Below are positions 50,430 through 63,495 of a DNA stretch of 64,000 nucleotides, piece after piece. This DNA is from an uncultured delta proteobacterium (lineage in GTDB: Bacteria; Desulfobacterota; Binatia; UBA9968). The notes under the pieces are model-generated. The model was not told the DNA's origin. It ran no database searches and saw only the letters and a program-made list of their open reading frames with translations. Location of the stretch: positions 1,888,001-1,952,000 of the forward strand of contig CAVUVW010000013.1 in the NCBI GenBank assembly GCA_963745035.1. Direction: 5' to 3'. A program made the translations under genes and the position numbers. Within the stretch, counting starts at the first letter, position 1; each line of letters starts with the position of its first letter.

Positions 50430-50481
50430 GGGATCGAGCCGGCTACGGAAGGTACCCGACACGAGGATTTTCAGTCCTCTG
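50430..50481 (-). mobile_element. tRNA-Phe(GAA) 3' fragment (att-like site), copy 1
   Basis: Minus strand CAGAGGACTGAAAATCCTCGTGTCGG is the tRNA-Phe anticodon arm and variable loop; a degenerate T-loop (GGCTCGATCCC) follows. Confidence 0.75.
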
Positions 50482-50859
50482 TTGGTAGCGGGACTATATG
50501 ACACTATCGGTCGCTATTGGTATCTATTCAAGCATTTAACGGCGGTCTCAGCCGGTCGTTTTACCGATTCGACCAAATAGTGGCATATAGTTCTGGCAAA
50601 GTTGTGACAAAGTAGAGATCCAATCCTCCTGTTTATCTGTCGTTACCGAGCTTCAAGGTCCCGGCTCGGAACGGAGATCAGGAGAGGCATCAATGGCAAA
50701 CATTTGAAAGGATGACAGTGCGCTTGCGAGGCTGAGGGTATCAATAGATGACTGCACTTATGGAATCAGTCATCTAGTCCAGCACAGGCTTGGCACAACG
50801 TAAGCTGGGTTTCTATGGGATAAGACTTGCTACAGTTCAAAGCCCAACAAAACACCGCT

Positions 50860-52810
50860 TCAATCATATGCGGTACGCGGCGACTGGGGCTTGTTTAGGT
50901 CATCTTGTCCATCCCGAAGCGTGCGAATCAGGTTACCCCGAATAATCAGATCCGAAATCTCCAAACGTGTCATGGCTTCGTTGTGGCGCTCCTGAAGGTT
51001 GGCACAAGGAACGGTCGATCCGTTCGATGCGGCGTAGCACGTTGAGAGGTTTATTGGACCATAGCGCTTCACAAGATAGTGCTCCCCATCGGCGAAGCTA
51101 CCGTCGCGGAATACAACTAACGAGGGCCGGTTCGCAGTAAGGTCCTGCCCGAGCATGATCGAACTAGAGTCGTTGACTCCCAGTAAGCCGAGGAGTGTCG
51201 GAGCAATATCCACCTGACCACCGGTAACAGAGCGAGTACCAGCGTGCTCTCCATTTGGCAGACGAATCAACAGCGGCACTCTCTTCATCGTTTGTAAGTC
51301 ACGAAGGCGATCTTCATGTGAGTAATTAAGAAGTCCTGGAAGGTCAGGTGCCAAGCCTGTGTACGCCCTGTGATCTCCATAGATTGCAAACACCGTCCGA
51401 TCCAATACTCCGTCGGCCCGCAGTTGTTCGACGAACTCTCCAATTGCCTGATCGAAGTAGTTGGAGGTGTGAAGGTAATCGCCAAGAATCGTTCCCTCCA
51501 GTTTCCCAAGGTTAAGGACACGTTGCTTGGGCAGAAGCTTGTATGGGTGATGATTAGAGGCGCTGAGAATGAACGCAAAGAACGGCTCGGCCAGGGCACG
51601 CAGCCGCGGAACTGTCTGATCGAAGAAATCACGATCTGCCATCCATGGACCGATCCGTTCCCGAATATTATAGCTATCTTCGAAGTAGGACTGCTGGATC
51701 CCGTACTTGCCGTGCATCACACGCATATACCAGAAGTCGGCATGCGCCGCGTGGGCTGACATCGTCGCGTATCCGCGCTTCCGTAGAATCGTTGGGAGTC
51801 CGTAAAAATCGTTATGGCGATAATGAGCCACGACTACACCAATTGGAACGGGGTGCAGCGCCTGTAACGCGAGGAACTCACCATCAGAAGTAGTGCCAAG
51901 GTGCGTTTGCTCATGAATATTATCGAAGTAGATACTTTCTTTTACGAGCCGGTTAAGGTGCGGCGAGATGGCCTGCCCGTTTACCTCCATCCCTATCAAG
52001 AATGTCTGAAACGATTCCGCGCTGATCAGGACCACGTTGCGATTCGCCGCTGCGCCGAAAAGCCGAGAGCGTGGCTTTCTCCGAGCATCTTCAATGAGGT
52101 AATCCCGCACACGCTGCACCTCTTCTGGCGGGACGACCAGGTTCCTGTAATTGGTCGTCAAGAAGGTATGCAGATCCCACGCATGGTATGGAAGCAGTCC
52201 AAGACTGGCAGTAACCTCGCGCGGCCAGTAGGCAAATGCCAACAATCCGGTCCTTTCCTGCGTAAGTAGGCGGACGCTGGGTGCGGCTACTATAGCGCTC
52301 AGCCCGCAGGCGATTAGAAAAGCCCCTAACATGTACGGCCACTGCAATGGTGGAGCATCACGGCTGTTGCGGATATAGACCGGCACGAGCAGCGCAGCGA
52401 CAATGATGTCCAAGTAGAGAACTCCGTAAGCAGGTTTGATTAATGCGAGGATGCTAGGAATCAGGGTTCCTAGATGCATCAAAGCAGTCTTGCTCATCCA
52501 TGCCGAAAGGGGACCCCCGTAGAATGTCGCATGGATCATATTTGCGACCACTAGTGTGGTCACCACAAAGTTGAGTATCAGTAGCAGTAGAAATCGAGGA
52601 GCGCGCGAAAACAGGAGCAGAGGCGTACAGACCAGGAGCAATGAGGCGAAATTGGCCCCGAGTACTTCCGGATGCAGTTGCAATAGTCCGCTCACGGCGA
52701 CCTTTGAAACCCACGTCACATCTACCGCCACGTGGAAAATCAACATCTTGATCCAGAGAAGACAAACAGTCGCGGTCAACGGCACCGCGTCCAGTAGGGC
52801 GGTGCGATTC
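50860..52810 (-). CDS. LTA synthase (LtaS/MdoB-like sulfatase superfamily) membrane protein; start uncertain
   Basis: About 5 TMs, then ISAESFQ, GTTSDGE, SNHHPY, YGDH and QVDIAPTLL. The ORF-track N-terminus is IS110-derived. Confidence 0.88.
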
Positions 52811-52815
52811 AGGGG

Positions 52816-53063
52816 ATATAGCGTCGGAATCTTTATTGTAGCCCTCCCGCCCAAATCGCGCGACGAACTGGTATCACGCTGTCCCAATTAAGCGGAGCCA
52901 CACACCCACTAGTGCAGCAATCTGTTTTCGGTTGAGCTTTCCCACTTCCGGCAGCTCAGCCAACAGCATACGGCTGATAACAGTTTCAATTCCAGGCACA
53001 CTCTTGAGCAAGTCTTCCTGCTCCCGCCAGTTGAGCTCTGTTGGATGCTCTGATCAAGCTCGG
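52816..53063 (-). mobile_element. IS110-family transposase remnant
   Basis: Manual translation [43 protein letters not shown]...DS...IW(G)GRATIK..LY matches the IS110 Transposase_20 region; frameshifted. Confidence 0.75.
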
Positions 53064-53475
53064 TACATGACCCAGGCGCGATCGATCTGTCCCGGCCTAG
53101 TTAGGTTTGGTATGATACACCAAAATCAAGATAGAAGATGCTAAAAAGAATCCAGGCTTGCATAGCGAGAAGAGGAACAACCGTCTTCGCTTATTCCAAC
53201 GTCCGACGTTCGGGCTGCAGCTGAAATGATCTCGCCGATTCTAGTTAATTCGGTAATGAGGCTCTCATGCAAGTCACATCTGTGTCACATGAGGAATATT
53301 TCACGAAGTTGACAGCTCGTTGGCGGGAGTTCACGCCCGAGGAAATCGCACTGCTTTCAGTCTGATCTTAGGCTTTATGGCTCAAATCGTTCAGGGCTAC
53401 GCTCAGTCGGAATCGGTTAGCGGCCCTGCTCGTTATAGTTCTTCTGTTATTCAGAAGCTAAGTGAGGAGGCCTAG

Positions 53476-61484: not shown

Positions 61485-61504
61485 GACGCGCACTGCTTAA
61501 TGCC

Positions 61505-61933
61505 TTATTTAATCCGAAATACCGGATGTCGAGGCGCTTCGAGGGCGAAATCTCTCAGATCAGAATGTACCGTTACGTCAAAGAATGGTCGAACCACCGG
61601 AACCTGAGCAAGATATGTTTTCAAGACGGAAGCCGCTTCTTCAGCCGGAAGTTCCTGGAGCTTTACAGTCTCAGATCGCCGACCACGCTGCAGGGTGACT
61701 TGCCCCGCTGCACGAGCGTTTCTCACCCAACCAACCTCGCCGTAGGGCGCGACAAGCCAGCGCTGCCGCTCGCGTTCGACGAGTGTCACCGGGGTTGAGT
61801 AGGAGCGACCCGTTTTTCTTCCTCTAACCGTTAGGAGATAGGTATGCGGAGGACTCATGTCCAGTCGCAACAAGGCGCGGACGATCAAGTTCACTAGCTT
61901 GCGCCATGTCCCTAAGTGGTATGCCCAAGCCAT
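61505..61933 (-). CDS. Deazaflavin (F420)-dependent nitroreductase family protein, copy 2
   Basis: 137 of 142 aa identical to copy 1; GGAGG RBS. Confidence 0.9.
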   Translation of the reverse strand: MAWAYHLGTWRKLVNLIVRALLRLDMSPPHTYLLTVRGRKTGRSYSTPVTLVERERQRWLVAPYGEVGWVRNARAAGQVTLQRGRRSETVKLQELPAEEAASVLKTYLAQVPVVRPFFDVTVHSDLRDFALEAPRHPVFRIK

Positions 61934-61951
61934 GCTGCCTCCGGCAGGAAA

Positions 61952-63282
61952 TTACGACGGTGTCGGCGTTTTGGTTCCGACGGCACAATGAAACGGTTGA
62001 GCAATGAAATACGTTCCATCCAAAACCGCTTGCGCCATACCCGCCTTCCATTCCTCCGTCTCGATGTTAGTTAGGGCGCCGAGAATAGCGCCATGCGCAA
62101 AATGCGCTTGGGGTGTGTCGGGTTCCGGAGAAGCGGCAAATTGCGGCCATATCGTGGTGTTCGCCAGACCTAAATTGTGAAAACGTCGATAAAGACTCGC
62201 ATCCGCACATCCCTCTGCACCAACGAACCCGCGTGGGATTTGCGTCTTGGATTTTAACTCTGGGCTTAATGGAATATTAACGACCAATGGAATGTCGATC
62301 GCTCTCACCATCACAGCCACACGTCCTCCAGGCTTCGTCACCCGGACTAATTCGCGCAGCATGCGGTCGGCATTTCCTTCCTCTAAAACTGTAAACGACA
62401 CTGCCATGTCCACGTGGTTGTCTGGAAACGGGAGGGCTTCCGCATTTCCTTCATGAAATGTAATCAGATTTGAAAGACCCTCCTCTACGGCCAGAGCGGA
62501 GGCTTCGCGCAGGAGATAACGGTTAACGTCAACGCCGATAATATTGTTGTTCTGGCCTGTGTAGTGGGCGAGCCAGCGATCTACAACACCAGAACCACAA
62601 CCGACTTCCAAGATGATCTCGCTAGGCCGCAACTGCACAACGTCGATCACGCGCCGTACTGCGTTCAGATAGCCGACTGAATGGCCCCGAGATTCCAACA
62701 TGGCTAAAAAACCCAACTCAGGCCCCCCGAGAGTGACAGTGCGATACCGGGCGCAAAGAACCGGTAACAGAGGCTCCCATTGGGACGATGCTAAACTCAG
62801 CGGCAGCAGCACGAGCGGTGTTCCTGCGCCCTCGCAGGTGTACCTAATACCTGCAATTGTGGCCCTCCGAATTCTGCTCCGCCTTATTGTCATTTCGCGG
62901 TGGCTCTTCCGTGATCACATTGAACAACGCATTTTCCACATGGGTGGTAAAGTCTGCGATGGGATCTGCCCATGGGGGACTGAAGTACGCAGGGAGCCAG
63001 ATTACTCTAGCATCGGGCAGGCTATTCGCAGCCTCTCTCACCATTGAGGCAGGGCGACCTTGATCACCGCTAACTATTTGTAAACGTGTACCGAGAGCAC
63101 GCAAACTACCATCGAGACGCGGCGGACAGACAAGCGTGAGCGATTCAATACGTTCCGGATGCGCCAGAGCAAGGCCCGCTACGTCGGCCAGCATGGACGC
63201 TGCGAAGTGAGCACGCTCCATTCCCAAATGGTCGAGCACGTCGGAAATGCGAGCGGTCCACAGTAAGTTCTGCTGCGGTCAT
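61952..63282 (-). CDS. Alpha/beta-hydrolase-like domain fused to a SAM-dependent methyltransferase; +1 frameshifts (~63258, ~62862)
   Basis: GAGGAG RBS, then MTAAELTV..VLDHLGMERAHF; later LEVGCGSG, GNAEALPF and RVTKPGG. Confidence 0.75.
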
Positions 63283-63325
63283 CAGCCCATCTCCTCGGTT
63301 TCTGCTGATGGACGTTGTTTCGGAA

Positions 63326-63495
63326 ACACCAGGAGGTATAGCTCAGATTTCGGCGATTGGGCAATCGTGAACTAGATGCAAATCGACGCACCGCTCTCGG
63401 ACAATCTACTTTTCTAAAGCGACCCAGCACGCCGTGAGAACGGCTCCATACCCCCCAATGTCAGTAGCACCGGCAGCGGGCCAGAATCCGCGTGA
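63326..63495 (-). repeat. Degenerate arm repeat, copy D
   Basis: ...ggacaatc...acgccgtgagaacggctccataccccccaatgtcagtagcaccggcagcggg shares blocks with copies A, B and C. Confidence 0.6.

Follow-up and report, generated by a model that had tools for sequence, protein, structure and literature searches.

Junctions descended from the tRNA-Phe anticodon arm, with variable 7-nt centres, in a probable tandem accretion array of an uncultured delta proteobacterium

The stretch of DNA analysed here comes from an uncultured delta proteobacterium and is 64,000 nt long (called the window below; C13:1888001-1952000, on the 1.97-Mb contig C13 of a genome of 7.43 Mb in 28 contigs with 47 tRNA genes). It carries three short sites that share both arms and differ in the 7 nt between them. 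Our results suggest that the region is probably an array built by tandem accretion at tRNA-Phe, in which modules without an integrase are joined at recombination junctions. The sites belong to a large, apparently undescribed soil-bacterial family with fixed arms and a freely varying 7-base centre. One site of the window is a classical junction of an element that integrates into tRNA-Phe, and the other two, together with most copies found elsewhere, form a second class, in which the left arm is kept and both the loop and the right flank are different. We also propose, tentatively and with some doubt, that exchange at the 7-bp overlap may tolerate heterology.

Results

Three sites with shared arms in the window

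The core pattern GACACGAGGA-N7-TCCTCT, scanned with up to 2 mismatches allowed, matched the window three times, each time with 0 mismatches and on the plus strand: at 50458-50480 (site A, centre TTTTCAG), 57471-57493 (site B, centre CTAGTGG) and 61344-61366 (site C, centre TTATTGA). Shuffled versions of the window gave a mean of 0.02 core matches and none of 100 shuffles reached 3, so the core motif is real and non-random. These are the sites that a first-pass annotation of this DNA had described as having common arms, different spacers and a single orientation (its copies A and B are the sites at 57471 and 61344, here B and C), and that observation is confirmed.

The only tRNA-Phe(GAA) gene of the genome lies on the minus strand of a contig other than the window's (C14:97449-97524). 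Read on the minus strand, site A is identical to it over 26 nt (C14:97475-97500), from tRNA position 26 through the anticodon arm into the variable loop, which agrees with the earlier reading of this site as a minus-strand tRNA-Phe anticodon arm. To the left of core A, the minus strand of 50400-50457 appears to hold a decayed stub like a tRNA 3' half, with a T-loop-like stretch (GGCTCGATCC) and an insertion of about 14 nt relative to tRNA-Phe, as judged from a comparison by eye. To the right, an A-type arm that resembles a P arm extends on the plus strand (50455-50634, nhmmer E 1.7e-53) and includes the direct repeats ACCGATTCGA, present twice, and GGCAAAGT/GACAAAGT. No tRNA stands at sites A, B or C according to ARAGORN and Rfam. 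ARAGORN found only a tRNA-Gln and a tRNA-Arg in the window, Rfam at the gathering threshold returned the same two, an Rfam search of 50000-64000 at E<=1 found nothing at the sites, and Rfam found nothing in the 16 kb to the right of the window.

Site A and the tRNA-Phe locus

Site A is a classical junction of a tRNA-Phe-integrating element, composed of a decayed, displaced tRNA 3' half, the overlap and a far (P-type) arm. This follows from the Phe loop in all A-type cores and from the fusion of the arm to true tRNA-Phe 3' halves. The loop TTTTCAG was kept in 4/4 A-type cores examined. At C17:19326 the left side consists of the complete tRNA-Phe 3' half and a C-terminal integrase remnant, which match the true locus with 93% identity over 283 nt, and the right side is, from the anticodon loop on, the same arm as that after site A. 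An A-type arm is likewise fused to the true tRNA-Phe 3' half in genome G018 (L032:2917). The displaced tRNA fragment is present as a direct repeat, of 26 nt at site A and of the whole 3' half at C17:19326. Among 30 relatives of the genus, nine carried the A-type arm with 73-89% identity, the match beginning at the core in every case, and in the same search the arm was better conserved than most genes of the window. In two of four soil runs its contig depth was 57-69, against about 6 for its neighbours.

The sequence downstream of tRNA-Phe codes for the C-terminus of a tyrosine integrase with SAM-like and catalytic domains (Pfam). The integrase gene beside the true tRNA-Phe is convergent with it, near-complete and frameshifted, and occupies two frames (C14:96354-97350). 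The homologous integrase of the relative G012, also convergent with tRNA-Phe, is uninterrupted, with 427 codons from stop to stop and 386 aa from the first Met; the G012 contig stops short of the far end of the element. Linkage of the sites to tRNA-Phe, which had been suspected from the window sequence, is seen in the fusions at C17:19326 and in G018 and in same-orientation arrays beside tRNA-Phe in relatives and metagenomes; the only integrase linked in cis is the frameshifted one beside the true tRNA-Phe, on a contig other than the window's. The window itself was said to have no integrase, and this holds for its whole 1.97-Mb contig, where no PF00589 match was found.

Tyrosine integrase genes or fragments adjoin many tRNA genes of this genome (tRNA-Cys, Ala, Ser, Glu/Gln, Arg/Ser, Met, Lys/Glu and Phe). 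At C26:60192-61085 an integrase precedes a tRNA 3' fragment whose loop resembles a TTC anticodon. In the search for an integrase near (i)-type sites (a subfamily of cores described below), the C26 integrase 24 kb from a core was set aside as a member of a tRNA-Glu island. Just upstream of the integrase remnant by the tRNA-Phe half site, a large serine-recombinase-like frame with a zinc-ribbon motif was seen in the minus-strand reading (C17:19700-21400).

Distribution of the cores in the genome

A relaxed core pattern had 35 matches in the genome. Nineteen of them had the left arm cgACACGAGGA and a recognisable flank (18 sites and tRNA-Phe), and the other 16, which had no common flank, were set aside as chance. 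The motif is therefore not confined to the window copies: there are 18 cores in the genome and at least 108 copies in metagenomes and metagenome-assembled genomes (MAGs). The genomic sites cluster at C13:1938459-1952698, which comprises the window sites and one site 698 nt past the window end, and at C14:67836-77048, which is 20-30 kb from tRNA-Phe and has the same orientation. Further clusters lie at C17:5906-19326, at C1:1979-9489 and on C25, C26 and C2, and an inverted pair of sites is present at C13:539961/540148.

A second class with a variable 7-nt centre

The best-sampled members of the second class form a subfamily, designated (i), which is not the arm type of the window's own sites. 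Its right arm TTCTCGTAGCAC is followed by about 170 nt of conserved sequence, and C13:1952698, the next site past the right end of the window, belongs to this subfamily. In the genome, a hidden Markov model of the (i) arm matched 9 full copies and, in addition, 4 fragments of the arm that lack a core. By BLAST the (i) arm was present in 7 of 24 relatives of the same genus and in 0 of 16 genomes from two other families of the order. Twenty-three (i) copies, 9 from this genome and 14 from relatives (one of the latter, L016, from genome G005), were found via similarity of the arm and not of the core. All 23 loops are distinct, and the core arms of these copies vary at no more than 2 positions.

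Scans with the exact core arms gave 32 stretches in species-representative genomes and at least 120 in metagenomes. The bearers of the family flank are MAGs titled Candidatus Binatia, 'uncultured delta proteobacterium', Thermodesulfobacteriota, Pyrinomonadaceae, Blastocatellia, Sulfotelmatobacter, Pseudolabrys and Verrucomicrobia, among which binning errors are possible; eight exact-arm matches, mostly from Bacteroidota and Thermoleophilia, had no family flank. With duplicates removed, and counting among the matches listed, the conserved arm was present in at least 108 of at least 140 distinct sites from MAGs and soil metagenomes, and those 108 copies held at least 53 distinct loops. Among the same matches the loop consensus is TT-NNN-R-A, with T at position 1 in 98/108, T at position 2 in 104/108, a purine at position 6 in 98/108 and A at position 7 in 107/108, and with positions 3-5 nearly free. 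The same overlap at every junction is hence a property of the A-type sites (4/4), and it fails for B, C and the (i) subfamily.

The left flanks of the second class are decaying tRNA 3' halves. A T-loop-like GAATCGAA(Y)C lies a few bases from the left arm in most copies, and at site C the left flank, read on the minus strand (GGGTGGTTCA), is T-arm-like, as the first-pass annotation had noticed. We found no description of this family in the literature, including a full-text search on integrases and tRNA in Binatia; on anticodon-loop att (attachment) sites and coupling sequences, general works only were found.

Arrays and exchange of flanks

The arrangement of the sites was examined in a set of 118 loci (0.50 Mb) that contain an (i)-type site. 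A Phe-loop core was also present in 13/118 of these loci in the same orientation and in 0/118 in the opposite orientation. Its position was to the right, at a distance of 0.26-3.6 kb, in all of these 13 loci but L061, where it was found only to the left; five of the 13 were intact tRNA-Phe genes (ARAGORN), and the rest were half sites. Two to four cores were found in 23 of the 118 loci, at a spacing of 54-4,800 nt, and the spacing of 186 nt in L217 corresponds to a bare arm between two cores. A single module separates an (i)-type core from an intact tRNA-Phe in G015, where it codes for a 181-aa membrane protein, and in G005, where it codes for a PIN/Phd toxin-antitoxin pair. The junctions share one orientation, and tRNA and integrase stand at the head of the array in relatives. 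One metagenome contig (L188:1263-1370) has an exact 54-nt tandem duplication that holds the whole core, with the same loop twice, and that ends just after the right arm; it may have arisen by slippage or by recombination, or be an artefact of assembly.

The cores are junctions where the flanking DNA switches partner. In the locus pairs L121/L210, L165/L189 and L191/L213 the right flanks were 96-100% alike and the loop was the same, and the left flanks were unrelated from the left arm outward. One further pair shared the left flank and the loop and had different right flanks. The copies on C25 and C26 are 97.1% identical over 1130 nt from the core, and their left flanks are unrelated. Their loops, TTTCAAA and CTATGGA, differ at 5/7 positions, for which the calculated chance at 3% divergence is about 5e-7. 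L164 combines a tRNA-Phe-like right arm (TCCTCTGCTC) with the non-Phe loop TTGTCGA. Taken together, the C25/C26 pair, L164 and the pairs with exchanged flanks indicate that the loop can travel with either side, which is the result expected of exchange at both edges of the 7-bp overlap, if the centre need not match.

Arms and element M

The (i) arm contains CTTTGCC twice, 11 bp apart, and CGAATC twice. The repeats of the A arm are the same words in the opposite orientation. Judging from the sequence, these direct repeats are putative arm-type protein-binding sites.

Sites B and C lie in a duplicated unit (57470-58077 and 61343-61933, 91% identical over 610 nt) that begins at the core's left arm and extends as far as the start codon of a gene for a 142-aa F420H2-quinone-reductase-like protein. 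The flank of about 130 bp that had been reported as common to these two sites is real, and it is only part of this longer unit. The B/C-type arms (57494-57648 and 61367-61504, both plus strand) each include a partial copy of a conserved element of about 130 nt, here called element M (...GGACAATCACCCGTTCC...ACGCCGGGAGAACGGCTCTTTGCCCCACAATGTCAGTAGCACCGGCAGCGG...), which stands inside or after the arm in B, C and several other copies. The element had 12 genome matches at E<=0.001, usually 50-190 nt to the right of a core, and contains the invariant word ACGCCGGGAGAACGGCTC. Four copies lie in the window. The partial ones are at 57574-57625 (with ACGCCGGGAGAACGGCTC), at 61425-61480 and at 60655-60737 (plus strand, nhmmer E 1e-10; no recognisable core adjoins it), and the full one is at 63374-63520 (plus strand, nhmmer E 1.2e-33), left of which, at about 50 nt, there is only a degenerate stretch that resembles a core (ACACCAGGAGG). 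The recurrences of the flank that had been noted at 60660 and 63429 correspond to the last two, and the third that had been suggested, at 44941, is a short, loose match by eye without an nhmmer match at E<=0.1. Other M copies are located at C14:67903-68050 and C17:12007-12154. No conserved reading frame was found after element M in the copies compared.

Some joints in the read contigs were considered as rearrangements of the window and rejected. The joints 57603>63452/63457 and 57610>63457 (X3, X13; depth 2.3-3.4), which would be deletions, represent other M copies, and the conserved ACGCCGGGAGAACGGCTC word makes up their shorter side, of 25-36 nt. Paralogous arms likewise account for the joints within the A arm (50478>50583, 50480>50559).

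A conserved 150-aa gene beside the (i)-type sites

A strongly conserved gene for a protein of 150 aa (MAGIRGKSGPPGNQNAFRHGL...) is always located about 170 nt to the right of (i)-type cores, reads away from the core and was seen in 42 loci. Mean column identity in the family is 72% (11 aligned copies); the copy of C25 is at L009:5012-5458 (plus strand), and the (i) copy beside the window (C13:1952698) holds only the first part of the gene. Searches of Pfam at E<=1 and of PHROG at E<=0.1 gave no match for the protein. Its AlphaFold model is all-helical, with a predicted local distance difference test score (pLDDT) of 72.9, and had no match in BFVD better than E 0.45. A feature search placed the protein near phage clusters, in some of which 28-56% of members carry Terminase_4, and we take a likeness to terminase small subunits as a lead only. 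Large sensor kinases are the other frequent neighbours of (i)-type sites, including those on metagenome contigs.

Cargo of the window

The genes between the sites of the window, assigned by Pfam, point in both directions. Two sulfatases (50860-52887, minus strand; 53476-55437, plus strand) and a YNCE-like beta-propeller protein (56265-57263, plus strand) are encoded between A and B. A 126-nt periodic repeat in the latter (56342-57108, 5-6 copies with 69-81% identity) represents the blades of the propeller and is no separate feature. The 142-aa F420H2-dependent quinone-reductase-like gene of the duplicated unit (57649-58077, minus strand, PF04075, E 8.6e-11) has its second copy at 61505-61933 (minus strand). 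The genes past the duplicated unit are unlike: an NMT1/THI5-like binding protein (58178-59137, minus strand) follows the B copy, and a class I S-adenosylmethionine (SAM) methyltransferase (61952-62893, minus strand) follows the C copy. An arylsulfotransferase (59522-60652, plus strand) completes the cargo between B and C. In the same array on C13, 10-14 kb to the right of the window, a TIR-domain protein (L005:10706-11449, minus strand) and a cyclic nucleotide monophosphate (cNMP)-binding hybrid histidine kinase (L005:13809-15761, minus strand) are encoded.

A paralogous array on C1 shares the beta-propeller block with the window (C1:6081-7322, 99% identical to window 56036-57277) in another block order, and there the block is fused to a fragment of the 150-aa gene. 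The contamination estimate of the genome is 5.8%, and some paralogous arrays may be strain variants collapsed in one assembly.

Discussion

In the proposed accretion at tRNA-Phe, modules would be linked head to tail at att sites that derive from the anticodon arm of tRNA-Phe, and the recombinase would be a tyrosine integrase that acts in trans and crosses over in the anticodon loop. The relic of the tRNA 3' half, the anticodon-stem inverted repeat round a 7-nt centre and the long arm with direct repeats together point to a lambda-type att anatomy. The second class keeps the inverted repeat, which the integrase would bind, and the outer bases of the loop, and varies in the central 3-4 bases among copies; its 7-bp overlap would act as a 'conserved dinucleotide plus coupling sequence', as in CTnDOT. 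A module would integrate into tRNA-Phe, and of the two daughters produced by replication, one would have the tRNA with its Phe loop and, at the distal junction, the loop of the module; the other, reciprocal one, with a broken single-copy tRNA-Phe, would be lost. Survivors would thus keep the Phe loop while the loop of each module goes distal, so that arrays would collect loops that are all different, as seen.

The departure from known accretion is the centre of the site, where the TT edge and the A edge are kept and the middle varies. Tolerance of heterology during exchange at this overlap, which we would sooner doubt than assume, is suggested by one strong pair (C25/C26), a few weaker pairs and the core of L164. 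The variable-loop sites may also be locked fossils, or may be served by another recombinase.

Several known systems resemble these arrays in part. Tandem islands at tRNA genes, including tycheposons (bioRxiv 10.1101/2020.12.28.424599) and Islander-type islands (PMC4383910), have in common with the present sites a tyrosine integrase that enters a tRNA gene, a regenerated tRNA, displaced partial tRNAs at module ends and older modules that later arrivals push away. In general architecture, degenerate integrases, scattered partial tRNAs, cargo modules and satellite-like members bearing terS are also alike. In the tycheposon islands of Prochlorococcus, older elements are pushed inward by new arrivals, and partial tRNAs and broken integrases stay behind (bioRxiv 10.1101/2020.12.28.424599). 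Unlike in those tandem islands, most junctions here do not repeat the tRNA sequence and retain no more than the left arm, of 11 nt, and a portion of the right arm, the 7-nt centre differs each time, modules can be as short as 54-190 nt, and most copies have no integrase within reach.

The CTnDOT work describes the overlap of IntDOT as 7 bp, made up of a conserved dinucleotide and a coupling sequence of 5 bp, which changes with the site, between imperfect inverted repeats, and describes the first exchange as dependent on homology and the second as independent of it (PMC2817482). On that description, attDOT/attB and the present sites are alike in the 7-bp overlap, the imperfect inverted repeats and the conserved TT with a variable centre (PMC2817482). 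This is a likeness of site anatomy and implies neither an integrase of the IntDOT lineage nor heterology tolerance here. CTnDOT differs in being a large conjugative element with its own integrase and with several loosely conserved chromosomal sites, and involves no tRNA anticodon arm and no arrays. Coupling sequences are also known from Tn916-type elements.

Cis-mobilizable elements and those of the ICESt type provide another parallel, in which integrase-less DNA between att sites accretes beside an integrative element and could be moved by its integrase; their att cores are identical, and neither a variable overlap nor a family of the present scale belongs to that picture. The pdif sites of Acinetobacter plasmids are 11-6-11 XerC/XerD sites that alternate in orientation round modules. 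They are similar to the present sites in being short, two-armed sites with a variable spacer that bound modules and are served by recombinases encoded elsewhere. Set against the general pdif consensus, the present sites differ in their 7-nt spacer, in being all direct repeats and in having the tRNA-Phe anticodon stem as arms. Integron attC arrays are like these arrays in their same orientation, small modules, imperfect palindromes with fixed outer parts and a variable centre, and a recombinase outside the cassettes, and unlike them in the R/L boxes, GTTRRRY and long folded bottom strand, which are absent here, and in their attI anchor in place of a tRNA gene. The likeness to pdif- or integron-like sites proposed by the first-pass annotation is not supported: the sites show none of the defining features, and no fold beyond the short core hairpin was found. 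Gene-cassette capture, which it had also proposed, is a fair functional analogy, and the closer model is that of modules accreted in tandem at a tRNA gene through an overlap that tolerates heterology. Its interpretation is, overall, partly supported.

A number of observations count against accretion at tRNA-Phe with variable overlaps. The sole cognate integrase in this genome is frameshifted and no intact one was found there; the next-best homologue is 38% identical and lies beside tRNA-Ala. The window array and tRNA-Phe are on separate contigs, and contig C13 runs on for 14.4 kb past the right end of the window and has neither a tRNA nor an integrase there, where a check for an intact tRNA-Phe and an integrase had been suggested. 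A tblastn search with ten tyrosine recombinases (nine frames of this genome and that of G012) against about 0.5 Mb around (i)-type sites gave one 66-aa fragment only (L061), so no recombinase can be assigned to the second class, and none recurs among the neighbours of (i)-type sites. The window stretch is held by 20 runs from 7 studies. In contigs of four runs from four studies, the window array was essentially unchanged and no excision circle, empty site or alternative junction was found at A, B or C, although circles and empty junctions had been envisaged; contigs drop rare variants, and the missing junctions are thus weak evidence. The search pattern itself fixes the arms of the copies from metagenomes, and arm invariance is an independent result only for the 23 copies found via the arm. 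The loops of B and C differ at 3/7 positions, which is not significant on its own against a flank divergence of 16% over 74 nt. The case for swapped spacers with intact arms, first made from these copies, rests on the wider family, of which it is a general property. Finally, the block shared by the window and C1 ends at 56036 and 57277, away from the cores, so that illegitimate recombination also shapes these regions. Module boundaries were expected to coincide with the sites; flanks do switch partner at the cores, and some boundaries, such as those of this block, lie off them.

The same facts were compared with other explanations. Ordinary tandem accretion at tRNA-Phe followed by decay, with dead att fossils, with B and C as a local duplication that drifted and with the loop as the least constrained part, is unlikely in our judgement, though by no means negligible. 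It fits site A and the other A-type junctions exactly, it is compatible with a B/C loop difference that lies within the flank divergence, and it accommodates the frameshifted integrase and the stability of the array across the four runs. Integrase fragments and truncated arms are common here, as they are in the degenerated elements of tycheposon islands (bioRxiv 10.1101/2020.12.28.424599). However, drift does not explain a 5/7 loop difference beside 97% identical DNA, nor does it account for the fact that, in copies whose discovery did not depend on the core arms, 23/23 loops are distinct although the 8-bp arms beside them are near-invariant, for loop positions 1, 2 and 7 that are conserved and positions 3-6 that are free in 108 copies among the matches listed, or for identical right modules in different left contexts. 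In its classical form this explanation also predicts the Phe overlap at every junction. The claimed departure from ordinary accretion hence applies to the second class, family-wide (23/23 distinct loops), and not to site A, which is an ordinary junction with the Phe overlap. A strict integron-like cassette system, in which hairpins of folded single strands undergo one strand exchange that replication resolves and an integron-type integrase acts, is improbable, even though same-orientation arrays of small modules, the lack of an integrase in cis, a variable centre between fixed inverted repeats and a conserved G.T in the stem that pairs on the plus strand only would all suit it. The genome even has a bona fide integron integrase (C6:42134-43036, minus strand; L221:2038-3168; TIGR02249, 445 bits against a cut-off of 265; a 383-aa open frame), but no core lies near it in a strict genome scan and the adjacent 17 kb have no evident attC-like repeat array. 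The site itself has an 8-bp stem and a 5-7-nt loop without R''/L''-L'/R' boxes and without GTTRRRY, RNAalifold predicts the core hairpin only, with 0 compensatory pairs, and the flanks (a tRNA 3' half and a P-arm-like arm with direct repeats) are hallmarks of lambda-type att sites. Single-sequence folds of the three sites and the next one were mostly within the range of shuffles (z -0.4 to -2.1, and -3.6 for the minus strand of B only). A 'hairpin 2' to the right of the core, which looked compensatory by eye, was rejected, as it was not predicted by RNAalifold and had, over 100 copies, a mean z of -0.46 forward and -0.68 reverse.

It is very improbable that the repeated unit is an RNA gene or a regulatory RNA, be it a tRNA-like hairpin whose 'anticodon' has diversified or the leader of the conserved gene next to it. 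The plus-strand loop does fit Y32-U33-NNN-R37-A38, the stem has a G.U, and the (i) core is followed by a conserved 170-nt leader and the conserved 150-aa gene reading away. The loop pattern is, however, also the one inherited from the complement of the Phe loop, ARAGORN and Rfam found nothing even at E<=1, and neither a cloverleaf nor a supported second helix is present. Loop bases covary with no other column (mutual information, MI, <=0.26 bit), and none of the 20 runs that hold the stretch is recorded as RNA. Such an RNA would also leave unexplained why left flanks change exactly at the left arm, the fusion to a tRNA-Phe half and the linkage to tRNA-Phe. A guide, whose loop would be matched by a variable stretch elsewhere, was rejected as well, with a top MI of 0.26 bit and no complementary pattern in 103 copies. 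Least credible to us are non-autonomous transposons resembling miniature inverted-repeat transposable elements (MITEs), for which the arms would be terminal inverted repeats and the loop flanking or target DNA. Modules do begin with ATTCTCGT and end with ACGAGGAT, an imperfect inverted repeat, and they abut with 5-7 variable bases between them. Yet no transposase is linked, target-site duplications are absent, as a module has one loop at its left and another at its right, and the left end is a relic of a tRNA 3' half and no mirror of the right end. Insertion always beside another end and tRNA-Phe is site-specific behaviour, and the 35 genome matches include no solo insertion at an unrelated site with a target duplication.

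Conclusion

Building on the accretion array at tRNA-Phe, a broader system can be imagined in soil bacteria (mostly MAGs titled Binatia), and we consider it possible but distinctly doubtful. In such a system, tRNA-Phe would dock small integrase-less modules whose att core keeps the anticodon-stem inverted repeat and has a free coupling centre, a tyrosine integrase acting in trans would carry out exchange that tolerates heterology, and selection on tRNA-Phe would sort the products into integron-like arrays with a different tag at each junction. The modules docked would be of several kinds: a bare att arm, the 150-aa gene, possibly terminase-small-subunit-like, and metabolic or regulatory cargo.

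At tRNA genes, lambda-type integrases work, as a rule, with identity in the overlap. Should the variable-centre cores be active, they would represent a tRNA-anchored, cassette-accumulating system that works without such identity, and a natural recombination site whose centre can be changed at will. Their activity would also explain the flexible islands, with sulfatases, sensor kinases, toxin-antitoxin pairs and TIR proteins, of an abundant and poorly studied soil lineage. Even if the sites are fossils, the core, the 170-nt arm and the conserved gene without a Pfam or PHROG match are precise markers of module boundaries in soil metagenomes.

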